DNA of 64,000 nucleotides from an uncultured Gemmataceae bacterium (GTDB taxonomy: Bacteria > Planctomycetota > Planctomycetia > Gemmatales > Gemmataceae). The stretch spans positions 1,568,001-1,632,000 of the forward strand of contig CAVVPN010000003.1 of the NCBI GenBank assembly GCA_963750165.1, read 5' to 3'. The notes below the pieces were generated by a model. It had not been told where the DNA came from, did no database searches, and saw only the letters and a list, made by a program, of their open reading frames with translations. Positions 39,518 to 52,382 of the stretch are shown here, one piece after another; within the stretch, counting starts at the first letter, position 1; the number at the start of each line of letters is the position of its first letter. The position numbers and the translations under genes are program-made.

Positions 39518-40288
39518 ATGGCATCTCGACTTGCTTCCAGCTCTGGAGTGGCGTTGCTGGCGGGCGCCCTGGTGTTCCTTACCCCGCTGCCGAGTCCGGC
39601 GCAGCACGGCGGTGGTCATGGCGGCGGCCACGGCGGCGGCATGGCGCACGGCGGCATGGCGCACGGCGGCATGGCGCACGGCGGCATGATGCACGGCGGC
39701 ATGGTGCACCCCGGGATCTACCGGGGTGGCTACGGCTACGGCGGCTACGGCCTGGGCTACGGCGGCCTCTACGGGTTGGGTTATGGCTACGGCCTGGGGG
39801 GCTACGGTTACGGCCTGGGGGGCTACGGTTACGGCCTGGGAGGCTACGGTGGCTACGGCGGTTATGGTGGCTACGGTTACGGCGGCCTCGGTTATGGCGG
39901 CTACGGCGGCTATGGCTATCCTACGGGGGGCTACGGCTACGCTCCGAGCTACGGTCTCGGCTACACCACCCCGGGCTACGGTTACGCTCCGGCGACGGTG
40001 CCGGCCCAGCCCAACGTCCCGCCCAACGGCCAGGCAGCCCTGAATGGCGGCGCCGGCATCCAGGTGATCGTGCCGGGGAACGCGGAACTCTGGTTCGACG
40101 GCAACCCGACCACGCAGCGTGGCCCGGTGCGGGAGTTCCAGACACCGCCATTGGACCCCAACCAGACCTTCACCTACAAGGTGCGCGTCCGCTATAACCA
40201 AGACGGCAACGTGGTGGATCAGGAGCGCACGGTGCAGGTGCGCTCCGGTCGGCAAGCTTTCATGGACTTCACGGTGCCGCAGAAGTGA
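39518..40288 (+). CDS. TIGR03000-type planctomycete protein with Gly/His/Met and Gly/Tyr low-complexity regions
   Basis: Signal peptide, (GGMAH)n, (GYG)n, then VPGNAELWFDG...REFQTPPL...FTYKVRVR. Confidence 0.85.
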   Translation: MASRLASSSGVALLAGALVFLTPLPSPAQHGGGHGGGHGGGMAHGGMAHGGMAHGGMMHGGMVHPGIYRGGYGYGGYGLGYGGLYGLGYGYGLGGYGYGLGGYGYGLGGYGGYGGYGGYGYGGLGYGGYGGYGYPTGGYGYAPSYGLGYTTPGYGYAPATVPAQPNVPPNGQAALNGGAGIQVIVPGNAELWFDGNPTTQRGPVREFQTPPLDPNQTFTYKVRVRYNQDGNVVDQERTVQVRSGRQAFMDFTVPQK

Positions 40289-40437: not shown

Positions 40438-40740
40438 GTGCCGCCCGACAAGTTGCAGAGCCACAAGGCGCTGCTGAAGCTGTGGGTCGGCACGCTGCTC
40501 AAGGCGATCACGCTGGAAGACTTGCTCGGCTTGTTGCGGCCACACCACCCCAGCCTGTTCGCCCTGCGGCGGGGCCTGCTGTTTCTGTCGCGTTTTGCCG
40601 TGGACACCCGTTATCCCGGTTTCCACGCCCGCCGCAGCCAGGCCGACGCCTCGCGGCGCGGGGCAGGCCAAGTCCGAAGCGCTGCCCGCACCATCCTGGG
40701 TTTGCGTCCACCTCGTCCGAAGCGGAAAAAGCCGCCCTGA
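40438..40740 (+). pseudogene. C-terminal remnant of a HEPN-domain protein
   Basis: LEDLLGLL...LSRFAVDTRYPG matches the C-terminal half of HEPN proteins; the N-terminal half is absent. Confidence 0.5.
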
Positions 40741-40793: not shown

Positions 40794-41086
40794 TCAACCG
40801 TTGCGCGGTGGCACGATGTTATAGCCCAGCGCCAGGATCAGTTTGAGCGTCTCCAGCGCCGCGTCGCGGTCGTATTCCTTCTTGTCCTCCGGCAGCTGGT
40901 CGTACGCCACCAGGTCCGGATGCCGCTTGGCGGCGGCGTCCGTCGTCGGGCCATACGTCCAGCCGTCGGCGAGCTTCGCCGCGCCGAGACATCGTGCGTG
41001 TTCTCGGCCAGGCGCTCCGTCAGGTCGCGCAGGGCTTCCGGCAACTGCACCGCGGACGTGTCCACGGGTTTCGGTTCGTAACGCAT
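40794..41086 (-). pseudogene. Stand-alone RyR (ryanodine receptor repeat) domain protein, frameshifted near 40985
   Basis: YEPKPVDTSAVQLP...ERLAENTHDV / DGWTYGP...KRHPDLVAYDQLPEDKKEYDR...LKLILALGY. The usual Trp after H-D-V reads TCG, next to the indel. Confidence 0.85.
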
Positions 41087-41192
41087 CGTTCCCTCCCTCG
41101 TTGAAATGCCACGGGCGATATTCTTGCCTCACGCCGCCGGTCCGAACAGGGCGTCGGCGTCGAACTCCGGCCCGACTCACCTCCAGTCGCCA

Positions 41193-42090
41193 TCAGGCGT
41201 CCAGGATGCGGCGGGCCTGCTTGCCCATGCTGTCGCGATGGAACGGCTGCACGTTCGCCTCGGCCGCCGTCGCCGGGTGCCAGATGTTGTCGTCCGGCAA
41301 CGCCACCGGCCGCCGGGCTAACAGCTCGTCCGCGGCCGCCCCCCCTTCTGCAAATACACATCGCAACGGACGTCCTGCCGCCGCTGCCACCCCAGCGCCG
41401 CCAGCAGCAACAGCAGCGTCGCCTTGTTGATGCCCGGATAGTGGCCGTTGCGCAGGCCATAACCCAGGTCGTACTGCCGCAGCGCTTCCAGGTAGTGCTG
41501 CTCCGCACGGTCGAGATCCTCGTCCTGCCAGGAGATAGCCGATGCGTTCGTAGAGCTGGGCGAAGACATCGGTCACGGATGCTGGCGACGGGGTGCCGTG
41601 ACAGACGGCGCCGAGGAAGGCGTGTTCGAGGTGGACGGCAGGGATGCCGCCCAAAAACTGCTGGGCGTCGCCGTAGACCAGGCCGATCAGGCTGCCGTCG
41701 CCGGCGTGCCGCGGTTCGAGCGTCATGAACACGGGATCGTGGCGGAGGCCGTGTGGCTTGCAGGTGTGCCAGGCGGGTCACCTCGGCGGCGAGGCGGTCG
41801 GGGCCGGCGAGCTTGACGACGTGACGGCCAGGCTGGTCGGTGCCGTCCACCTCGACGAGGAGGATGAACTCGCGGTCGCGGCGGCGGTAGCCGAGGTACT
41901 GGTCCTGCACGGCGACAGCGCGGGCGCCGGGGAAGAGGCGTTCCAGGCGGCGGGTGAGGTCGGTCATGGTGTCGTCCTGGGCGTTGGGCTGGTGGCGGCC
42001 GATGGCCGCGGCGAGGGCCTGGCGCAGACGGCGCTGGGCGGTGACGGTCCAGAACACGAGCGGCGGTTGCTCGGGCGGGGGCGGTCGCAT
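41193..42090 (-). pseudogene. Internally deleted paralog of the kinase-like + TPR-S gene at 47831-50092
   Basis: Colinear motifs HVVKLA, AWHTC, LVYGDAQQFLGG and PSPASV; a jump near 41530 to HYPGINKATL and DNIWHPATAAEA; several frameshifts. Confidence 0.78.
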
Positions 42091-42246
42091 GGGGGCGACT
42101 CCTGCGCTGGGGGCCGGGCGGCCCGGTCAGAGGATGGGGCAAAGCACGCCGATTACATGATATGGAATAAAAGGAATTTATTCAATGATAAATTCACAAA
42201 TACATTGATAAGACCCGCGCTGATTTAGAGCGGTTCGCATCAAACG

Positions 42247-42446
42247 GTAGCGGTTTCTTCGCCCCGAAGGGGCGGGACAACATAGCCCAGGGCATCGCCC
42301 TGGGGGCTCCGATTCGACCCTCTCCCTTTTTTCTTCCGTGCCCTGAAGGGGCACGGAAGAGAGGAGAGTGTCAGTCTTCTCCATGGTTCCCAGGGCGATG
42401 CCCTGGGCCAAGTTGTCTCGCCCCTTCGGGGCGAAGAAACCGCTAC
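42247..42446. mobile_element. 200-bp MITE/REP-like element with long imperfect terminal inverted repeats
   Basis: GTAGCGGTTTCTTCGCCCCGAAGGGGCG...GCCCAGGGCATCGCCCTGGG is mirrored at the other end; internal GCCCTGAAGGGGC hairpin. Confidence 0.7.
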
Positions 42447-42475
42447 ACCCAACCGCAACATGCGCCAGGAGTCGC

Positions 42476-45400
42476 TCAACCCCGCTGCAACATCTGCCGC
42501 ACCCCCGCGAAGTCGCCATCGACGATCTGCTCGAATCCGATGGGGTGCAGCACGTCGGCGATATGCGCCAGCATGTCGCCCACATCCACGATCCACCGGC
42601 TCATCTTCACCAGCAGCATGCCGTCCTGCATGCCCAGCAGGTTGTCGTTGCGCAGCTGCAGCAGGGCGTCCAGTTCGCCCTTCCAGTGCCGCGTGTGGGC
42701 GGCCCGCTCGCGGATGCTGCCGATGCGGGCGTCCTCCAGCGTCAGCGGCAGGATGCGCCGCAAGAACTCCTCCGCCTGACTGCGGCTGTACTGGTAGATG
42801 CCGTGCAGTTCACTCATGCAGAACACCGACCGCAGATATTTTTCGCTCAGCACCACGACTACCCGGTCACCGCGCGTGAGCGCGTGCATGAATTTCGAGA
42901 TGCGCTCGCCGCGGCGCATGGCGTCCTTGTCGCGGATGACCTCGTAGTCCCACGACCGCAGCCGTGCGCACAGGCGCTCAACCACCTCCTCGCGCTGCCG
43001 GCCCGCCGCGGTCGTGTCCTCACCCCAGGCGTAGGAAATGAACACCTGCGGTTTGCCGGCCCGCACGACCACCGATGGTTCGACGATCTCCAGGTCCTCG
43101 ATGCCGCCCCGCGCCGCGTCCGGCGCGGGCTGCTGCCGCTCCGGCGTGCGCGTCACCTCCGGCGGTTGGCCGACGGCCACCTCGAGCAGCGTCTTGAGCA
43201 CGCTCTCCACCAGGTCCGCCGCCTGCTCGCCCCACGCGGACAGGGTGACCTCCCCGGCCCACGGCTGCTCCGGCCCCAGCCCCTGCCGGCTCTGGATCAG
43301 CAGTTTGCAGCGGGTCTTCTGCTCCCAGAAGCGGCAGCCGTACTTCCAGTACACCGCGGCGTCGCGCCCCTGTTCGCCGACCCTCGACAGGAACGTGCGC
43401 AGGATGCCCTCGTGCAGGAAGCCGAAGCGGGCCGTCGCCGCGGCCGTCGGCGGCGTCTCCGGCACCCAGCCGGCCAGCTGGTCCTGCACGCCGCGATCCG
43501 CGAAGTCCGGCAGCAGGTCCGGGGCGGCGTAGTCCCACACCGCATCACGCCCCGGCGCGGCCAGGTTGCGGACCCGGAAGCAGATGCCGCAGCTTAGCAT
43601 CATGCCGAGGAAGGTTTCCTGCTCGGCGTCGCTGTAGTCCTGCCAGACGAGCTGGGCCAGTGTCTGGCGGACGAAGCGGCCGTCGCGGAACAGGTACGGC
43701 AGGGTGCGCTGGCGGTCGAACAGCGTGTAGATCGCCTGCAGTGCCCAGCTCTGATCCAGGATGATGCGGTCCTCGAACAGGCCGCGGCGGTAGAACACCA
43801 CGCCGCTGCGGTGCAGGAACTCCAGCAGCGCCGCCGGGTCGCTGACCTTGCCCGTCTCCTGGCACAGGGCCTGGAACTCGTCCTGGGTGAGGGTGCGGTG
43901 TCGGCGCTGGGCGGGCGGCCGGACCTGGTCCTCCTCCAGCATGGCCCGCAGCCGCTCGCGCACCTCCGCCCGCCCCGCCCCGATCTGCCGCAGCGGCCGC
44001 CGGTGCAACAGGTGCTGCACCGCTTGCTTGAGGTGGCCCACCAGGGCGTCCAGCCCGTAGTCGGTTTTGGCGCTGAACTCCAGGAACTTGCGAGAGCGGA
44101 AATCCTTCACGGGTACATCGGGCTGCGGCCGGCATTGTTCGGGGCCGTCGCACTGGCTCTGGACGACCAGGACCGGGCTGACGGTGCCGGCCAGGCGGCG
44201 GACGTAATCGAGCCAGTAGGCCAGGGGGTGATGGCGCATCTCCACGCCCTTCTCGACCGTGCCGCCCGTCTCGTGGTCCGGCGTCCACAGGAGGACGAAG
44301 ACCGCGTGCCCCTGCAGGAAGAGGGCGTGCGTGCCGTGGTAGACGTCCTGGCCGCCGAAGTCCCAGAAGCGGACATGCACGGGGCGGTCGCGCCCGGTCA
44401 GGGTTAGCTCGAAGTCGTGGAGTTCCACGCCGTGCGTGGTGGGGACGTTGTTGGGGTCGGGGTCGTACGGCAGCCCGCGCAGGCGGCGGCACAGCTGCGT
44501 CTTGCCGACGCCGCCGTTACCCAGGACGAAGAGTTTGACTTCCGCGTCCTCGGCGGCACCGTGTTCCAGGTCGGCGTAATGGGCTTTCACCTGGTCGAGG
44601 ACATTCTCGTGTGATGCTTGGCCACAGACTTCTTCCGGCAAGTCGTTGAAATGACAATCGAAGAGACGCAGTTCCTGGAGTTTGGGGAACAATTGATGGA
44701 ACCTGTCAAAGACGCGAAGTTTGTCACACCGGCACAGGTCGAGGGACTGGAGGTTGACCAGGGCCGCCAGCGGGGCCACGTCGGCCACGCCGGTGCTCTC
44801 CAGGTCGAGGGATTGGAGGTTGGTCAGGGCCGCCAGCGGGGCCACGTCGGCCACGCCGGTGCTCTCCAGGTCGAGGGACTGGAGGTTGGTCAGGGCCGCC
44901 AGCGGGGCCACGTCGGTCACGCCGGTGCTGGCCAGGTCGAGGGACTGGAGGTTGGCCAGGGCCGCCAGCGGCGCCACGTCGGTCACGCCGCGGCAGTTGC
45001 TGAGGTCGAGGGACTGGAGGTTGGCCAGGGCCGCCAGCGGCGCCACGTCGGTCACGCCGCGGCAATAGCTGAGGTCGAGGGACTGGAGGTTGGCCAGGGC
45101 CGCCAGCGGCGCCACGTCGGTCACGCCGGTGCTGGCCAGGTAGAGGGACTGGAGGTTGGCCAGGGCCGCCAGCGGCGCCACGTCGGTCACGCCGGTGCTG
45201 GCCAGGTAGAGGGACTGGAGGTTGGCCAGGGCCGCCAGCGGCGCCACGTCGGCCACGCCGGTGCTCTCCAGGTCGAGGGACTGGAGGTTGGCCAGGGCCG
45301 CCAGCGGCGCCACGTCGGCCACGCCGCGGCAGAAGCTGAGGTCGAGGGACTGGAGGTTGGCCAGGGCCGCCAGCGGCGCCACGTCGGTCACGCCGGTGCT

Positions 45401-46228
45401 GGCCAGGTAGAGGGACTGGAGGTTGGCCAGGGCCGCCAGCGGCGCCACGTCGGTCACGCCGCGGCAATAGCTGAGGTTGAGGGACTGGAGGTTGGCCAGG
45501 GCCGCCAGCGGCGCCACATCGGCCACCCCGGTGCTGTCCAGGTCGAGGGACTGGAGGTTGGCCAGGGCCGCCAGCGGCGCCACGTCGCTCACGCCGCGGC
45601 AGTAGCCGAGGTTGAGGGACTGGAGGTTGGCCAGGGCCGCCAGCGGCGCCACGTCGCTCACGCCGCGGCAGTAGCCGAGGTTGAGGGACTGGAGGTTGGC
45701 CAGGGCCGCCAGCGGCGCCACGTCGGTCACGCCGGTGTCGGTCAGGTCGAGGGACTGGAGGTTGGCCAGGGCCGCCAGCGGCGCCACATCGGCCACCCCG
45801 GTGCTGTTCAAGAAGAGGGACTGGAGGTTAGTGAGGGCCGCCAGCGGCACCACGTCTTTAATTTCCGTGCAGCCAGTCAGACTGATTCGCTCAAGCTGCG
45901 TTAGGGTTCCAAGAATGCTCAGGTCGGAGATGCCTTGCGCTTCCAAGTACCAGCAATGGCCCTGGGCGTCACCCGGTTGGGTTCCAAGAATGCTCAGGTC
46001 GGAGATGCCTTGCGCTGGTCGATTCGGATCCCATTCCCAATCAACACCGTCCTTGCCAATGCGAGGCGACCATTGCCCCAGCGCCAACACTCTCAGTTCC
46101 GTGAGGCTCCCCAACTCCTCGGGCAACGCATCGAGCGGCAAATCGCCAAGGTCGAGAACCTGGGCATGTTCCGCACGCGCCGCGGCGATGCGGCGCACGG
46201 CTTCCCGGTGGGCTTCTTCAGGCGACAT
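42476..46228 (-). CDS. Roco protein: LRR - Roc GTPase - COR - TIR
   Basis: LRR array; GNGGVGKT, TTHG, WDFGGQDVYHGTH and FSAK; COR (FLHRSGVVFY); TIR (VFISYAW...VVVVLSEKYLRSVFCMSEL). Confidence 0.93.
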   Translation of the reverse strand: MSPEEAHREAVRRIAAARAEHAQVLDLGDLPLDALPEELGSLTELRVLALGQWSPRIGKDGVDWEWDPNRPAQGISDLSILGTQPGDAQGHCWYLEAQGISDLSILGTLTQLERISLTGCTEIKDVVPLAALTNLQSLFLNSTGVADVAPLAALANLQSLDLTDTGVTDVAPLAALANLQSLNLGYCRGVSDVAPLAALANLQSLNLGYCRGVSDVAPLAALANLQSLDLDSTGVADVAPLAALANLQSLNLSYCRGVTDVAPLAALANLQSLYLASTGVTDVAPLAALANLQSLDLSFCRGVADVAPLAALANLQSLDLESTGVADVAPLAALANLQSLYLASTGVTDVAPLAALANLQSLYLASTGVTDVAPLAALANLQSLDLSYCRGVTDVAPLAALANLQSLDLSNCRGVTDVAPLAALANLQSLDLASTGVTDVAPLAALTNLQSLDLESTGVADVAPLAALTNLQSLDLESTGVADVAPLAALVNLQSLDLCRCDKLRVFDRFHQLFPKLQELRLFDCHFNDLPEEVCGQASHENVLDQVKAHYADLEHGAAEDAEVKLFVLGNGGVGKTQLCRRLRGLPYDPDPNNVPTTHGVELHDFELTLTGRDRPVHVRFWDFGGQDVYHGTHALFLQGHAVFVLLWTPDHETGGTVEKGVEMRHHPLAYWLDYVRRLAGTVSPVLVVQSQCDGPEQCRPQPDVPVKDFRSRKFLEFSAKTDYGLDALVGHLKQAVQHLLHRRPLRQIGAGRAEVRERLRAMLEEDQVRPPAQRRHRTLTQDEFQALCQETGKVSDPAALLEFLHRSGVVFYRRGLFEDRIILDQSWALQAIYTLFDRQRTLPYLFRDGRFVRQTLAQLVWQDYSDAEQETFLGMMLSCGICFRVRNLAAPGRDAVWDYAAPDLLPDFADRGVQDQLAGWVPETPPTAAATARFGFLHEGILRTFLSRVGEQGRDAAVYWKYGCRFWEQKTRCKLLIQSRQGLGPEQPWAGEVTLSAWGEQAADLVESVLKTLLEVAVGQPPEVTRTPERQQPAPDAARGGIEDLEIVEPSVVVRAGKPQVFISYAWGEDTTAAGRQREEVVERLCARLRSWDYEVIRDKDAMRRGERISKFMHALTRGDRVVVVLSEKYLRSVFCMSELHGIYQYSRSQAEEFLRRILPLTLEDARIGSIRERAAHTRHWKGELDALLQLRNDNLLGMQDGMLLVKMSRWIVDVGDMLAHIADVLHPIGFEQIVDGDFAGVRQMLQRG
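44735..45856 (-). repeat. Tandem array of 66/69-bp LRR-coding units
   Basis: 16 complete units (ten of 22 aa, six of 23 aa) plus partial ends, with consensus LQSLxLxx(T/CR)GVxDVAPLAALAN. Confidence 0.95.
45904..46016. repeat. Exact 38-bp direct repeat around a 37-bp insert
   Basis: GGGTTCCAAGAATGCTCAGGTCGGAGATGCCTTGCGCT at 45904-45941 and 45979-46016. Confidence 0.9.
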
Positions 46229-46262
46229 GCGGTTTTCTCCGATTCATGGTTCGGTTGCTGCT

Positions 46263-46624
46263 GTCCGGTTCGTAGTACCGGCTTTAGAGCAGTTTGCGGC
46301 TGGGTGTAGCGGTGGAGTGTGGTGGCCCTGTTACTCGGGCTGGCAGCGTGGGGCACGGGACGGCACTGGTTTCCGACACAGTGGCCCGGTGGCCCGGTGG
46401 CCCGGTGACTCTTCCGACGACCCGCTACACCCGTCCGCTCACTGCTCTAGCCGGAACCGACGCTCAGATTCCGGCTAATACGGGAGCGCCTGGAGAGTTC
46501 ATGTTCCCTGTCCGAGCCCGAGCGCCAGCGAGGTGGCAGCTGGCCCCTCGCTGGCGCTCGGGCTCGGACCCCAGACAAGAACGATCCAGGCGCTCCCGTA
46601 TAAAGCCGGCACTACGAACCGGAC
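46263..46624. repeat. 24-bp inverted repeats enclosing a (GTGGCCCG)-type tandem and a hairpin at 46510-46569
   Basis: GTCCGGTTCGTAGTACCGGCTTTA (46263-46286) pairs with 46601-46624, one mismatch. An 18-nt direct copy lies at 40761. Confidence 0.8.
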
Positions 46625-47732
46625 GCCAGCATCCGGACTCTGTACGAGATGACGCGATGCGGTCCAGCCGTGGACACCTCATGGTACTGGCTCGCCACCC
46701 CGCCCGACAACGCCCCGGGCGCTGCTTCTTCCGCCCCGCCGGCAGCGGCTCCTCGGGGCACCAGCGCCGCGCCTCGGTGCGCAGCAGCCCTAGAAACACC
46801 TGCGCCGGCTCGGACAGGTCCAGCTCGCCCTCCGCGGTGGGGTGCTGGCGACAGATGAGCCGGACCACGTTCGGCGGCGCGAGGTCCGGGTGCAGGTCGC
46901 GCACCAGCAGCCCGCCGCGGTGCCGCGCCACCAGCGACCGCGGCAACAGCGCCACCCCCAGCTCCTTGCGCACGTAGCGGTCCACCGTCGGCCAGCCGCC
47001 CAGCTCCAGCACCACCCGCACCTTCTCCAGCACGCCCGCCGCCCGCAGCCTGCCGTTGAACGCCTGGCGCAGACTCGACTGGGCGTCCGGCAGGATCAGC
47101 GGGAACCCGAGCAGGTGCTCGGCCGTCACGGCGGGGCCTTTCGGCAGTCGCTCGAACGCCGCCGCGCTCGGCCCCCGGTCGGCGCACACCAGCTGCAGCG
47201 GGTCCGAGAACAGTTGCTCCACGTGCAGCTCGCGGCGGGCCAGCCGGTGGATGCGCGCCTCGTCGTCGGTGACCGCGGCGAGGTCGAGCACGCCGAGGGC
47301 CACCCGGCGGATGCGCGACTTGCCGCGCAGCACCGACACGCGCAGCGGTGCCGTCGGGCGCTCGCGGACGAAGGCGGTGACGGCCTCCAGGACGAAGCCG
47401 CCGACCGCCTCGTGACCGCAGGCGAAGCGCACCGCCGCGGGCCGGCCGCTGTGGACGTAGCCGGTGAAGTCCTGCCACCAGCGGACGGCTTCCTCGATGG
47501 CGGGCAGCAGGTCGCGGCCCTCCTGCGTGAGGACGAAGCGTTTGCCTTTTTTTTCGAGCCAGGGCCGCGGCAATTCCGTGCTGGCGTGCTGCAGCGGCTT
47601 GAGCCGCTTCGACATGCTGGCCTGGTTGATGTTGAGGTCTCTGGCCGCGACCGTGGCGTTGCCGTGGGCCGCCAGCAGCGCCAGGAGCGTGCGGCAACTT
47701 TCGGGGCTGAGCGGGATGGACGTGCGTGGCAT
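46464..47732 (-). CDS. LysR-family regulator (C-terminus probably extended by read-through into repeats)
   Basis: HTH AARDLNINQASMSKRL, LTQEGRDL, FPLILPDAQSSLRQ and LGVALLP. Similarity ends near 46760. Confidence 0.85.
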   Translation of the reverse strand: MPRTSIPLSPESCRTLLALLAAHGNATVAARDLNINQASMSKRLKPLQHASTELPRPWLEKKGKRFVLTQEGRDLLPAIEEAVRWWQDFTGYVHSGRPAAVRFACGHEAVGGFVLEAVTAFVRERPTAPLRVSVLRGKSRIRRVALGVLDLAAVTDDEARIHRLARRELHVEQLFSDPLQLVCADRGPSAAAFERLPKGPAVTAEHLLGFPLILPDAQSSLRQAFNGRLRAAGVLEKVRVVLELGGWPTVDRYVRKELGVALLPRSLVARHRGGLLVRDLHPDLAPPNVVRLICRQHPTAEGELDLSEPAQVFLGLLRTEARRWCPEEPLPAGRKKQRPGRCRAGWRASTMRCPRLDRIASSRTESGCWRPVRSAGFIRERLDRSCLGSEPERQRGASCHLAGARARTGNMNSPGAPVLAGI

Positions 47733-47830
47733 GGTCACCCATCCGTATCATGAACAATGGCGAACGTTATGGATTTTCATTCTTCATGCCATATTACACC
47801 CCACCGCCGCCGCAGACAACGCCGCCCGCG

Positions 47831-50092
47831 TCATTTCCGCCCGCCGCACCCCCCGACCGGCCCCGGTTGGATGCTCTCCCAGGTCGCATGGCCGGCGAAC
47901 AACACGTCCACCAGCCGGCCCAGTTCCTTCTGATCGAGCACGTGCCACAGCCGGCAAAGTTGGTGGTACGCGGCCTGCACGGGTTGCACAGTCGCGCCGG
48001 AGTGGTCCAGGGCGTTCTGATAAAACTCAAACGCTTCCGCATACTTGCCCAGAACCAGGGCCGCCTCGCCTTCGGTCGCGAACACCCAGAACGTGTCCTC
48101 GCGTTTCAGAATGTCCGGTCGCCAGCACAACTCGGCCACGCGCCTGGCGAGTCGGGTCGCCCGCGGCGCCTCACCGAGCAGCAGCGCCAGTGACGCCGCG
48201 TTGACCCCGGGGTAGTAATCGTCGGTCAGCTCGAACGCCTCCTCATAGACCAGCAGGGCCATGTGATACTGCTGCCATGCCGGCGAGCCCTGCGGCACTC
48301 CGCCACTCTCCTTATCCACCCGATACCACTTCCCCCACGCCGCGTCCCCCGCGTTCTTGTAGGTGCGTCCCAGCCGGCTCAGCGTCTCATGGTCGCCGAA
48401 GACCTTGCACCCTTCCTGGAAGCCAAGGACCAGCTTCTGGGCTTCCGCGCCTTTGCCCACCTCGGAGAGTAACAGGGCGTATTCCTGCTCCAGCGGCACC
48501 GCATGGCTGAACAACGGCCGGTACACTTCGAGCAACTTCAGCCCCTGCGCGGCCTTGCCCTCCTGCCAGAGACGATGGGCCTGGAACAGCGGCACACGGT
48601 AGCAGGGGCAGAGAACCGCCTCGTCCTGCGGCGGCTGCGCCATCAGATCGCGGAGGCTCTGCTGCGTCGTGGTGAGTCGGGCCGCCGCCACCCCGGCCGC
48701 GACCAGCGCACACTCGGCCGCCTGCGGTTCGTAGTCCCACTTCACGCTCATCAACCCGTAGACGGTCAGGGCGAAGTAATACTCCTCGCGCCAGTCGTAC
48801 ATCCGGCTGCGGTCGTGTCCCAGGACCAGGGCTGCCTCCTGCCGGATGCGCAGCAGGATTTCCAGCAACCGATCCAGCGTCTGCTCGTTCAGCACGCCAC
48901 GGCCGCCCGGCGGTTCGCGGCGTGCGGCGTCATCGCGGCTCAGGATCTGCTCGGTGCGCTCCGCCAGCTGTCGCTCGAAGAAGTACGCGAACTCCAGCCG
49001 ATCCGCCCGCCGCCCCCGGTCGGTATTGCTGGCCGGCCCGGTTCGCTTCCGCGCCGAGTCGTGTAGCAGCCGGTCGCGGATTTTCGGCTCGCGGTACAGT
49101 TTCGTCAGCATCCGGACCTTCAGCTCGGTCTCCAGTTTGACGAAATCCCAGACGATGACGTTATCCGGCCGCATCGTGCCATAGTCGATGATGACCGGGT
49201 ACTGTGCCTCCTCGCGTTCGACGCCGAGCAGGATGTTGCGGCCGTGCAGGTCGCCGTGCGACCGGCCGACCAGCGTCTCGGGCAGGGTGTTGGTGTCCAG
49301 GGCCCAGCGCACGTAGCTCACCGGGTCCAGGTAGGTCGGCACCAGGTCGGCGAGGTTTTCGGGCCGCTCCTTGCCGCACAGCAGCCAGATGGCGTCGCGG
49401 CGCAGTGCCACCGGGTCCGGCCGCCGCGCCCCGCCGGTGCAGCACCATTTCGTCAGCACCCGGTCCACTTCCGCCTTCGCCCCGGTCAAGAGTTTGCCTT
49501 CGTAGAACGCCCGGCCGCGATCGTCGGTCAGTCTGCCGTCGGCGTAGAACCAGCGGCCGAGGTCGGTGAAAAGATGGCAGATCACCCGCTCCACCGACAC
49601 CGGATCGGGGTTGTCTTTCACGGCCCATTCGACCACGGTTTCCAGGGTTTCGACGCGAGTTTTTTCGCCGTAGCCGCCGAACAGCATGTAGGCGTCCCGG
49701 TAGATCACTGCGAACCGGTCGGTTTTGGGCAACCGGTCGTCTTTGGACAAATCGTAGGGCCGCGGCGCATGAAGGATGCGGCTGGCCACGTCGCGGCCGG
49801 CGGTGCAGGCGTTCCAGCCGGTCCAGTCCGATTCGACCTTCTCCTTGCGGCCGATCTTGACGATGTGCGACTCGAAGCCGTCGTCGAAGCGCACGCCGAC
49901 GCCGAGCACCACCGACTTGCTGATGTCGGGCGCATAGCCGGTGAAGGAGCGCGACACGGTGATGGCCCGGGCGGGGCGCTGCTCGTCCCGGGTGAAAATG
50001 GCGGCCAGTTCGGGCCGCAGCACGTCCTTGAAGGCGTCGGGGATCTCCCGCGCGGCCGGTTCCACGAATTCGACCAGGTGACGTTCGGCCAT
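47831..50092 (-). CDS. APH/protein-kinase-like domain fused to TPR-S (DUF4071 / MAP3K TRAF-binding-like) domain, 753 aa
   Basis: AAGGAGG RBS; HIVKIG, HGDLHGRNILL, IIDYG and DFVKLETE; C-terminal ETLSRLGRTYK, YYPGVNAASL and FWVFATEGEA. Confidence 0.8.
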   Translation of the reverse strand: MAERHLVEFVEPAAREIPDAFKDVLRPELAAIFTRDEQRPARAITVSRSFTGYAPDISKSVVLGVGVRFDDGFESHIVKIGRKEKVESDWTGWNACTAGRDVASRILHAPRPYDLSKDDRLPKTDRFAVIYRDAYMLFGGYGEKTRVETLETVVEWAVKDNPDPVSVERVICHLFTDLGRWFYADGRLTDDRGRAFYEGKLLTGAKAEVDRVLTKWCCTGGARRPDPVALRRDAIWLLCGKERPENLADLVPTYLDPVSYVRWALDTNTLPETLVGRSHGDLHGRNILLGVEREEAQYPVIIDYGTMRPDNVIVWDFVKLETELKVRMLTKLYREPKIRDRLLHDSARKRTGPASNTDRGRRADRLEFAYFFERQLAERTEQILSRDDAARREPPGGRGVLNEQTLDRLLEILLRIRQEAALVLGHDRSRMYDWREEYYFALTVYGLMSVKWDYEPQAAECALVAAGVAAARLTTTQQSLRDLMAQPPQDEAVLCPCYRVPLFQAHRLWQEGKAAQGLKLLEVYRPLFSHAVPLEQEYALLLSEVGKGAEAQKLVLGFQEGCKVFGDHETLSRLGRTYKNAGDAAWGKWYRVDKESGGVPQGSPAWQQYHMALLVYEEAFELTDDYYPGVNAASLALLLGEAPRATRLARRVAELCWRPDILKREDTFWVFATEGEAALVLGKYAEAFEFYQNALDHSGATVQPVQAAYHQLCRLWHVLDQKELGRLVDVLFAGHATWESIQPGPVGGCGGRK

Positions 50093-50394
50093 TGGCGAAA
50101 CCTCCTTTGAGGTGAGAGGCGAGGCGCACATCACGATGATGGGGCGCGCCGGGCACTGGGGTTTCCCACCGCCGGGGTGGGCGATCTTGATTCCCCCATG
50201 TCGCAGCCCGATTGTACCCTGGCGAACCTCCGTGCAAACACAATTCGGCGTTCCTGTCAGGCACCACGGCCAGGAACCTGGAGAGATTGCCGATACGCGA
50301 CCGGCGCGAGTCATCGACCGCAGAACCTTCCCGTCGTGGGTTCATGCCCTCTACAATGGCGAGAGTCTCGTCGCCATGAATCCCTCGGTGCCCC

Positions 50395-51321
50395 ATGACG
50401 AACTCTGTTTCGCCGGAAGTGCTGCGCAAGGTCCGCAAGCTGGCCCAGCTGCCCGAGGAGGCGCGGCAGTGTCACTTCGCCGTGTCCATCACCCGTCTCA
50501 CCGTCCTCAAGAGCCTGTGCGCACAGCCCGACACGGCCAACCGCTTCGTGACGTACCTGGCGCGGGCCACCCGGCGGCGGGTGGAGGAAACGCCCAAACG
50601 TCCGCGGAGCCTCTCGGAGCAGGAGTGGGCGGCCCACCGCGACCTGCTCGGCCGGGCCGTCGTGGCGCTGGAGCGGTACCTGGAGCGGCCCACGGAGGAG
50701 GGTCGCGACCGGCTGCGGACGCTCTTGCGGGAGTTGATCGACGCGCAGAACGAGCACCGTCGGGTATACGGCGGGCCGGTGCGGATCATCAAGGACATGA
50801 ACCTGCTCGTGGTCGAGTACGCCGTGCGCACCGTCGTGGCCAACGCGGCCAGTGCCCCGTTCTGGGTCTACCATACGGCCCGCTGTTACGCAGAACGCTA
50901 CGACGCCCGCCACGGCACCGGCCTGACGCCGGAGTCGGCGCCGCTGGTACAGGACATCGCGGACTTCTGGCTGCAGGAGTACGGCCTCACCGCCGAGACG
51001 CTCACCGCGCCGGCGCGGTCGCGCAAGCCGCGGAAGGCAGCGGCGACGGGTGCGGCCGAGGAGCGGGTGCGGTTCACGCCGCGGCAGGGGCAGTTTTTGG
51101 CGTTCATTCACCTGTACCGCACGCTGCACCGCCGCGGACCGGCCGAGACGGACATGATGAAGTATTTTCGCGTGACGCCGCCCGCGGTCCACGACATGGT
51201 CGTCAAGCTGGAGCAACTGGGGCTGGTGACGCGCGAACCCGGGGTGGCGCGCTCCGTGCGCGTGGTGGTACCCGCCGCGGAACTGCCCGCGCTGGAGGCG
51301 GTCGAGGGGCCGGCGTGGTGA
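50395..51321 (+). CDS. Unknown helical domain fused to a LexA/MarR-like winged HTH
   Basis: C-terminal FTPRQGQFLAFI...FRVTPPAVHDMVVKLEQLGLVTREPGVARSV. Confidence 0.7.
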   Translation: MTNSVSPEVLRKVRKLAQLPEEARQCHFAVSITRLTVLKSLCAQPDTANRFVTYLARATRRRVEETPKRPRSLSEQEWAAHRDLLGRAVVALERYLERPTEEGRDRLRTLLRELIDAQNEHRRVYGGPVRIIKDMNLLVVEYAVRTVVANAASAPFWVYHTARCYAERYDARHGTGLTPESAPLVQDIADFWLQEYGLTAETLTAPARSRKPRKAAATGAAEERVRFTPRQGQFLAFIHLYRTLHRRGPAETDMMKYFRVTPPAVHDMVVKLEQLGLVTREPGVARSVRVVVPAAELPALEAVEGPAW

Positions 51322-51342
51322 TGGACCCGCCGCGGCGCTACG

Positions 51343-51401
51343 GTAGGTCCGGCGAGCCGAGCCGGACCCGCAGCGGTTGCCGCTCGGCTCGCGGCACCTA
51401 C
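51343..51401. repeat. REP-like inverted repeat at the NB-ARC truncation point
   Basis: GTAGGTCCGGCGAGCCGAGC...GCTCGGCTCGCGGCACCTAC. Confidence 0.75.
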
Positions 51402-52382
51402 GGCGGCGGCCGGCGGCAGGGCGTCGAGGTCCACGGCCGCCAACCCCGGCAGCGTGAAGCGCCGCCGCGATGTGACCAGCAACAGGCAGCCCTGCGACGG
51501 CGTCAGCCCCTCCAACTGCTCCGGGCCGGCGGCGATGTCCAGCAGCAGCAGCAGCACGCGCTTGCCCGCCAGTACACTATGGTACATGCCCTCCAGCGCC
51601 GCGTCGTCGTCCGGCAGGCGCTGCTCCAGCCCCAGGAACGAGCGGATCACGTGGCCGAGGATGTCGCGGCGCGGCAGCGGCGGCAAGCCGGCGTGGAAGC
51701 CGCTGAGGTCGAGCGCCACGTGGCCATCGCGGTAGCGCTCGCCGACCAGCGCCGCCAGCTTGCGGGCCAGCTCCGTCTTGCCGATGTCCCCCTGGCCGCG
51801 CACGCCGCTGATCGTCGCCCCGTGGTCGCAGTGCGCCAGCAGCGTTTGCAACTGCTCCGTGCGGCCGATGAAGTCCGGCACCGGCGCCGGCACCTGCCGC
51901 GGCCCCAGCAGCCCGCGCCGCCGCATCCAGCCCTGCAGCGCCAGGTACACGGCATGGCGCAGGTTGTCCGGCGTGGTGAATGTGGCGGCGACCAGGCCGG
52001 CGTTGCGAATCTTGTCGTGCAGGGCCTTGATGCGGTCGCGGTGCTCGGGCTGCTTGCGCTCCTCCGGCCAGGCGTACTGCGGATCGACGAGGAAGCACAG
52101 CCGTTCGAGGCCGCGCCGCGTGGCGTGGTCGAACTCGTGCTCGGTGACGGAGCGCTGGTCGCCGGGCAGGGGGTGGCCGAAGCGGTAGGCGAAGACGCCG
52201 ACGTAAACAGCCGCCCCCTCGAGCTTGAGCAGCGAGGCGCGGACGGCGTCGAGGTCGGCGGCCTCGAAGTCCTTCATATCGACGACGCCCAGGCCGAGCT
52301 CGTCGCAGGCGCGGCGGACGGCGGCGCGGTAGTCGGCCAGGTCGAGACTGGTGCTGCTGATGAAGACCGTGGCGAGGGGCAT
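51402..52382 (-). pseudogene. Truncated DUF4062 (TIR-like) + NB-ARC/STAND NTPase gene
   Basis: VFISSTSLDLADYR...SVTEHEF; DFIGR; Walker A GQGDIGKTELA; LLLLLDIA; LLVTSRR. Homology stops at LDALPPAAA, and the rest of the track ORF is repeat and antisense sequence. Confidence 0.8.

Follow-up and report, generated by a model that had tools for sequence, protein, structure and literature searches.

In a 64,000-nucleotide stretch of the genome of an uncultured Gemmataceae bacterium (the whole stretch is here called the window), positions 40794..52382 hold an island of six minus-strand loci with ordinary genes on its flanks. A preliminary description, made from the sequence alone, had read these loci as one defence or cell-death signalling unit with a winged helix-turn-helix (wHTH) gene inside and a HEPN remnant at the edge. 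Listing of open reading frames and Pfam searches found all six loci in place with the domains proposed for them; the wHTH and HEPN genes were also found, both as weak calls. The genes are as follows.

40438..40740, plus strand: HEPN-like remnant; its family is common, and the gene does not belong to the cassette described below.
40794..41086, minus strand: stand-alone RyR (Repeat12) gene (Pfam E 4e-16), interrupted near 40976.
41190..42090 (approximate), minus strand: kinase 2/TPR-S remnant, compared with the homolog in locus L058 (66-74% at the amino acid level).
42476..46228, minus strand: intact LRR(17)-Roc-COR-TIR gene, 1250 amino acids, with a P-loop at 570 and Glu1140 at the catalytic position of the TIR domain.
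46464..47732, minus strand: LysR gene of the subfamily linked to the cassette; the domain is complete up to about 46750 and the native stop is gone.
47831..50092, minus strand: kinase 1, intact, 753 amino acids; TCAD9 domain of the APH/choline-kinase fold (residues 19-478, approximately) and ASK1-like TPR-S domain (residues 476-741, approximately).
50395..51321, plus strand: gene that does not belong to the cassette; its product joins an unknown N-terminal domain to a LexA-like wHTH.
51402..52382, minus strand: DUF4062 (TIR-like) and NB-ARC/STAND gene, truncated near residue 326, with degenerate Walker A and B regions.

Only kinase 1, the LRR-Roc-COR-TIR gene and the wHTH gene, which is unrelated to the cassette, are intact, and four of the six minus-strand loci are damaged. 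The first description was right about the domains and in part wrong about the state of the genes: the stand-alone RyR domain holds, but its gene is interrupted; LysR holds, but has lost its normal stop; the second kinase is decayed, as had been proposed, but is not a local duplicate of the first.

The island contains members of a core that is conserved in Planctomycetota/PVC (Planctomycetes, Verrucomicrobia, Chlamydiae) bacteria and consists of a kinase-TPR-S protein, RyR, Nudix, a divergent LysR and a TIR/DUF4062-STAND sensor, here called the cassette. A search from 103 aligned kinase homologs gave 131 confirmed matches; the best 80 of them led to 78 genome loci, many on short contigs, and 48 of these contain the kinase catalytic region. 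Among the 48 kinase loci, RyR is present in 23, Nudix in 28, the LysR subfamily in 15 and TIR/DUF4062 in 23; in well-flanked loci (at least 5 kb upstream and at least 3 kb downstream) the proportions are 13/23, 17/23, 13/23 and 14/24, respectively. The TIR/DUF4062 counts are lower bounds because the DUF4062 profile missed a true case, the DUF4062 of the window itself. Thirty control loci with TPR-S and no kinase core held RyR four times and LysR and Nudix once each, and the 12 well-flanked controls held four RyR, no LysR and no Nudix. At the level of genomes, RyR occurs in 11/11 kinase genomes versus 18/139 others in a family sample, in 3/3 versus 10/297 in a phylum sample, and in 14/14 versus 28/436 when the partly overlapping samples are taken together; the LysR subfamily occurs in 9/11 kinase genomes of the family sample versus 9/139 others. 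The co-occurrence in other genomes that the preliminary description called for is thus strong for the core genes, which are seldom found beside recognised defence genes. The kinase itself is patchily distributed (11/150 genomes of the family sample, 3/300 of the phylum sample).

Several partners are also found fused. Among the 120 kinase homologs listed, six are kinase-RyR fusions and one is a DUF4062-protein kinase-TCAD9-TPR-S fusion; of 21 homologs chosen for their length, seven join Nudix to the kinase, and Nudix-TIR-STAND and Nudix-DUF4062-STAND proteins are present. Optional partners in the loci include TrkA-RyR membrane proteins, RyR/TPR-S-cyclases, SLOG/SLATT proteins, TIR-trypsin, TIR-caspase and phosphofructokinase. 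By alignment there are two Nudix types, one with an intact and one with a degenerate Nudix box. One type (L043:4538-5008 and relatives) lacks the catalytic glutamates, yet is conserved beside the intact type, and some loci fuse both.

A search of the 9.6-Mb genome (93% complete) with profiles from relatives found kinase, TPR-S, RyR and the LysR subfamily confined to the island, apart from one weak 24-bit kinase match elsewhere; a cassette-type Nudix was not found by this search. Nudix is missing at the locus, which explains why the preliminary description saw none. The closest named relatives of the island proteins are from Planctomycetota, mostly Gemmataceae, and the GC content at third codon positions of six island genes (0.86-0.95) is like that of four flanking genes (0.87-0.91), so there is no sign of a recent foreign island; no tRNA was found in the window. 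Could unrelated mobile genes simply have gathered by chance where repeats abound? Palindromes resembling repetitive extragenic palindromic (REP) elements occur at most junctions, and neither the wHTH nor the HEPN gene is linked to the cassette elsewhere. Against this, restriction of four families to 11.6 kb of the genome shows that their clustering is not due to chance, and across genomes these four occur together and as fusions. As an account of the whole island, chance is hardly credible; it is refuted for kinase, TPR-S, RyR and LysR and stands for wHTH and HEPN. The wHTH call (LexA/MarR-like) is of a family present in 12/150 genomes, with no cassette genes nearby in the seven short non-self loci checked, and the HEPN match (Pfam E 0.048) is to a family present in 45/100 genomes.

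Pfam identifies the two halves of kinase 1 as TCAD9 kinase-like (E 3e-24) and TPR-S (E 1e-11), and a confident structure model with a predicted local distance difference test (pLDDT) score of 94.6 was obtained; a model built for the kinase domain from one sequence alone reached pLDDT 38 and was set aside. In the model, residues 19-478 resemble APH, choline, methylthioribose and sugar kinases (Z 12-14), and the fold is accompanied by the Lys, HxDxxxxN and DxG motifs of APH/choline-kinase-like phosphotransferases. K79, D281, N286, D303 and D316 are invariant in 103/103 aligned homologs. The preliminary description had linked the C-terminal half to the regulatory region of ASK1, and the best structural match of residues 476-741 is indeed the ASK1 central regulatory region (5ULM; Z 14.5, root-mean-square deviation 4.1 over 245 residues), at 13% identity and in a class of helical repeats that can reach about Z 13 by shared shape. 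A further ASK1-like match is 8QGY (Z 11.1), and PF13281 (DUF4071), which is below threshold in kinase 1 itself, matches many of its homologs. Foldseek returned TPR matches only, and a sequence search of the PDB gave no significant match. The polar TPR-S residues R573, D583, Y616, N631, Q711 and R714 are invariant in the same 103/103 alignment and partly common to TPR-S domains on cyclases and caspases. Elsewhere TPR-S is fused to class III cyclases (17/23 scanned), caspases (2) and a Crp helix-turn-helix (1), a range of fusions as would be expected of a plug-in sensor. No kinase relatives were found in the viral contigs searched.

In the sensor gene, DUF4062 (E 5e-15) is followed by what is left of an NB-ARC domain (E 0.044 in Pfam, E 2e-21 with NCBIfam STAND-TPR models), and the open frame continues to 51108, into the wHTH gene, with the match to orthologs ending near residue 326 at a palindrome. 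Close orthologs (50-64%) have open frames of 692-951 amino acids, and those inspected in genome G120 mostly end with TPR-like repeats; they adjoin kinase and TPR-S in one of four genomes with close orthologs (G120). LysR carries 100 extra residues; in a comparison set of 35 further entries, a few of which had been fetched twice, the excess is 0-15. It is co-oriented with the kinase here and is upstream and divergent in 14/15 kinase loci. Of 19 LysR-subfamily genes in the family sample, five are beside the kinase and two beside TPR-S or TIR/DUF4062; the window copy groups, at support 94/95, with one copy that stands alone and two that belong to cassettes. A shared LysR operator motif was not found, the motif sampler recovering only the LysR coding start.

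The RyR domain of the window keeps H31, H56 and D73, and the conserved W34 reads as Ser, with a frame change near 40976. About 4 of 38 ordinary genes of the assembly also show a frame change, so the break in RyR alone may be an assembly error. In the RyR domains of L021-L098 the H/W/H/D residues are kept in 29, 28, 26 and 29 of 29, at the +3/+25/+42 spacing of phage residues that bind cyclic ADP-ribose (cADPR), a correspondence mapped by spacing only. In the phage protein RyDEP the residues are H75/W78/H100/D117, and RyDEP cleaves 2'/3'-cADPR whereas 6/8 of its phage homologs bind it without cleavage (PMC13232231). In the RyR Tad protein they are H129/W132/H154/D171, and W132A abolishes activity (10.64898/2026.06.04.730250). 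Some loci encode TrkA-N (RCK) proteins that carry RyR at the C-terminus and whose N-termini are predicted to lie in the membrane (L032:3853-6087, L037:18180-21041, L039:15980-17800, L047:11771-13560); they are candidates for a bacterial RyR-gated channel. Fusions of RyR, TPR-S and class III cyclase also occur (L049:11367-13655, L073, L077, L084), some outside Planctomycetota, and could relay an ADP-ribose signal to cyclic nucleotides.

The LRR-Roc-COR-TIR protein has Roc followed by COR with intact GTPase motifs, and Glu1140 is invariant in 31/31 aligned homologs. Its 17 LRR units (window 44669-45866) are near-identical, of 22 or 23 amino acids with few variable positions, resembling a diversifying receptor. 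The family is common (422 matches at E<=1e-20), and close LRR-Roc-COR homologs (P0183, P0136, P0223) have EAD1-trypsin, SIR2 or a protein kinase replacing TIR or beside it. The preliminary description had taken all six loci, this gene included, as one integrated system. Two of the four closest orthologs in the family sample do lie beside cassette genes (Nudix in G012; RyR, Nudix, TIR and LysR in G112), the other two being on contigs of less than 7 kb, and a distant one adjoins cassette genes in L066. Elsewhere the linkage is rare: Roc-COR is present in 1/48 kinase loci, and cassette genes are found in 0/80 metagenome Roc-COR loci, most of them less than 45% identical, and in 0/35 loci of at least 9 kb. 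The two kinases moreover come from different clades, repeats part the blocks and four of the six loci are damaged. As a fixed operon the six-locus system is already largely refuted, and in any form we consider it very improbable. The core differs from the set first proposed, with Roc-COR-TIR, wHTH and HEPN mostly unlinked to it elsewhere. Roc-COR was accordingly rejected as a core cassette gene; Roc-COR-TIR is a common, effector-swapping family that is occasionally recruited to the cassette.

In the second kinase, a frame change near 41777 lies in the N-lobe, the catalytic loop and the start of TPR-S are missing through a deletion of about 1.2 kb, which is more than a small indel, and the TPR-S tail is frameshifted. 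The two kinases share 21% identity over 147 residues and fall in separate, well-supported clades of a tree of 43 locus rows and both window copies, and local duplication was rejected on these grounds. Repeats and promoter-like sites are distributed between the genes as follows.

42157..42185: AT-rich sigma70-like promoter site, minus strand, upstream of kinase 2.
42247..42446: 58-nucleotide inverted repeat element, about 55 genome matches.
42260-42304: Rfam Acido-Lenti-1 match within this repeated palindromic element.
46249..46640: nested palindromic repeats between LysR and Roc-COR-TIR, one with more than 300 genome matches.
50211..50238: sigma70-like promoter site, minus strand, ahead of kinase 1, called from the consensus alone.
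51336..51408: REP-like palindrome where DUF4062-STAND is cut short, about 40 genome copies.

The two sigma70-like sites in 12.9 kb compare with a shuffle mean of 0.7, and one lies ahead of each kinase. Because the kinases are only 21% identical and from different clades, have their own promoter-like sites and are separated by repeats, the stretch is a mosaic of remnants of two separately acquired copies of one cassette and not a single six-gene system. It is a turnover site, in line with the rapid turnover suggested earlier, and also holds an LRR-Roc-COR-TIR receptor of a kind that is sometimes recruited to the cassette. The Acido-Lenti-1 match inside a repeated palindrome suggests that this RNA family may overlap REP-like repeats.

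On the observed gene set, with its conservation and linkage, fusions, catalytic motifs and decay, we base a proposal for the intact cassette, to which we give a probability of about 0.5: signalling by TIR-made cADPR, a TPR-S-gated kinase, buffering or clearance by RyR and Nudix, and control by LysR. A STAND-TPR or LRR-Roc-COR sensor would detect infection or damage and switch on its TIR or DUF4062 domain, which would convert NAD+ to a cADPR isomer. The conserved polar groove of TPR-S may bind this signal and release the APH-type kinase, which would phosphorylate a small molecule and so slow or kill the cell. The host stand-alone RyR, as a dimer, could bind or open the signal and set a threshold; the Nudix with an intact box would degrade ADP-ribose and that with a degenerate box would act as a binder, while the divergent LysR would control transcription. 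In this genome only a sensor-TIR protein and kinase 1 are whole, and the buffering arm looks lost.

Several observations weigh against this proposal. No TIR/DUF4062 was seen in the retrieved DNA of 25/48 kinase loci (10/24 of the well-flanked), RyR lies within 15 kb of the kinase in only 6/11 kinase genomes, and 12/19 LysR-subfamily genes of the family sample stand apart from any cassette gene. The closest relative of kinase 1, in L021, shows no RyR, Nudix or LysR in the retrieved DNA, although its contig ends 260 bases downstream. The loci counted had also served to train the profiles for Nudix, LysR and TIR, although queries with proteins of the window itself likewise recovered RyR and LysR, and Pfam found many of the domains. 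The genomes are related (3/11 kinase genomes share a genus), in addition to the overlap of the samples. The H/W/H/D residues are conserved across the whole RyR family (PMC13232231) and therefore do not prove that cADPR is the ligand. Defence neighbours are scarce: PADLOC gave no defence matches for 18 window flank genes, and of 132 flank genes sampled (from 190) at 24 loci 14 matched, three of them clearly of defence type.

This scarcity is in line with a LysR-controlled stress or metabolic circuit responding to NAD/ADP-ribose or energy status rather than an antiviral defence, as are the phosphofructokinase genes near the kinase in L023, L046 and L051 and the combination of LysR with signal-clearing enzymes, which suggests a reversible response. 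The patchy presence of the kinase, the swapping of TIR and DUF4062-STAND sensors, the repeated gain and decay at one site and the association of Roc-COR with exchangeable effectors (TIR, EAD1-trypsin, SIR2, kinase) all speak against such a circuit, and we regard this alternative as decidedly improbable. The phosphofructokinase genes are co-oriented with the kinase and could encode its target or a product sink.

A further alternative retains the cassette and the class of signal and has the kinase phosphorylate ADP-ribose or its cyclic form, thereby making or cancelling the true messenger, with RyR-bearing channels, RyR-TPR-S-cyclases and SLOG/SLATT proteins as effectors. APH-fold kinases act on small molecules (PMC7159879), kinase-Nudix fusion is frequent, and such effectors are found in some loci: TrkA-RyR in L032, L037, L039 and L047, RyR/TPR-S-cyclase in L049 and L058, and SLATT in L043, L045, L046 and L051. 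Many kinase loci, however, have no such effector, and the kinase carries its own sensor domain, as an effector would; we consider signal editing unlikely. Returning to the proposal of a TPR-S-gated effector kinase, a broader version would make the cassette a tunable cADPR immune circuit of the host, read by bacterial relatives of modules known from human ryanodine receptors and ASK1, in which RyR serves as built-in buffer or glycosidase and is the likely source of the phage RyDEP and Tad proteins, an ASK1-like TPR senses a nucleotide and gates a kinase effector, and an LRRK2-like LRR-Roc-COR-TIR protein is a plug-in receptor. This is possible but doubtful. If it were true, the ASK1 TPR region and RyR Repeat12 would be predicted to descend from readers of ADP-ribose signals.

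The nucleotide-signalling, conflict-related character proposed at first is supported, as is the statement that the genes match no named system. PADLOC gave only generic TIR-domain matches in the region, and across 16 proteins from the window and the cassette it detected nothing beyond generic resemblance to TIR, TPR and Nudix. The closest comparison is with Thoeris, in which type VII pairs TIR with SLATT and type VIII pairs TIR with ThsI, a CMP hydrolase with TPR. The type VIII effector is TPR-bearing and cADPR-activated (10.64898/2025.12.03.692087), and the part of that source seen does not mention Nudix, kinase or LysR. The cassette likewise has a TIR with a catalytic glutamate (E1140 in the window) near an enzyme bearing a TPR sensor, and SLATT/SLOG in some relatives. 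It differs in having the TIR built into a large receptor of STAND or Roc-COR type, in using an APH-type kinase as the enzyme, and in adding RyR, two Nudix types and LysR. The window has no compact operon of a ThsB-type TIR and an effector, its TIR being the C-terminus of a 1250-residue Roc-COR protein; no matches to ThsB_TIR or Thoeris models; and none of the known Thoeris effectors (SIR2-SLOG, Macro, SLATT, CMP hydrolase-TPR and others). By inference, the cassette would work like Thoeris-type signalling while falling outside Thoeris in layout and effector.

Other known systems share single parts. The cassette RyRs have the PF02026 domain of phage RyDEP and RyR Tad (as does the window copy) and share the H/W/H/D spacing, but are chromosomal and TIR-linked and occur in fusions with kinases, cyclases and TrkA membrane proteins; the window copy is broken and lacks the full set of ligand residues (Ser at the Trp site, frame change), which relatives keep in 26-29/29. 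The vWA-MoxR-VMAP ternary systems, the source of the Pfam name TCAD9, have active APH-like kinases in a planctomycete conflict context, and in the part of that paper seen RyR and TPR-S are absent under those words (PMC7159879). No MoxR, vWA or VMAP was found among the region's genes and the near flanks scanned. Cassette relatives have the TIR or DUF4062, STAND and TPR layout of Avs and other bacterial NLR-like STAND proteins, with the STAND embedded in a multi-gene cassette instead of acting alone; the window gene, truncated at about residue 326 with degenerate Walker regions, has no active STAND with C-terminal sensor repeats. ROCO proteins, which carry the LRRK2/DAPK1 module, share LRR-Roc-COR with intact GTPase motifs; here a C-terminal TIR is added, and the family is mostly not beside the cassette. 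ASK1/MAP3K5 offers the best structural match of the TPR-S half and regulates a kinase in cis, as TPR-S would in the cassette, where the kinase is APH-type and N-terminal.

The cassette gives RyR a host context and offers testable parts that may serve as an off-switch for the signal, as a ligand pocket (in the ASK1-like TPR) and, in the case of the APH-type kinase, as a new class of effector; it also bears on whether RyR Repeat12 and the ASK1 regulatory region sense ADP-ribose metabolites. A literature search found no description of the cassette, which is conserved and apparently uncharacterised; the papers of Burroughs and Aravind (2015, 2020) that reportedly define TPR-S lay outside its coverage and may already draw the neighbourhood. 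Two 2026 preprints show that phage RyR binds or cuts TIR-made cADPR, and neither describes a host cassette in the parts seen (PMC13232231; 10.64898/2026.06.04.730250). The parts seen of four other sources also hold nothing on the cassette (PMC8195603; PMC9503650; PMC10910872; 10.64898/2026.09.18.752743). The window, being mostly decayed, is a poor test object, and the intact relatives in L037, L046, L047 and L056 are better.

Some genes near the cassette or the island deserve mention. In a proteobacterial metagenome-assembled genome, dual-specificity phosphatase and ADP-ribosylglycohydrolase genes lie upstream of the kinase cassette (L050:6186-7672), and a reverse transcriptase matching the PADLOC UG29/DRT models lies about 9 kb from another (L029:1-1203). 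Just beyond the island, at window positions 39518-40288, is a gene for a Gly/Tyr-rich repeat protein with the planctomycete TIGR03000 domain.

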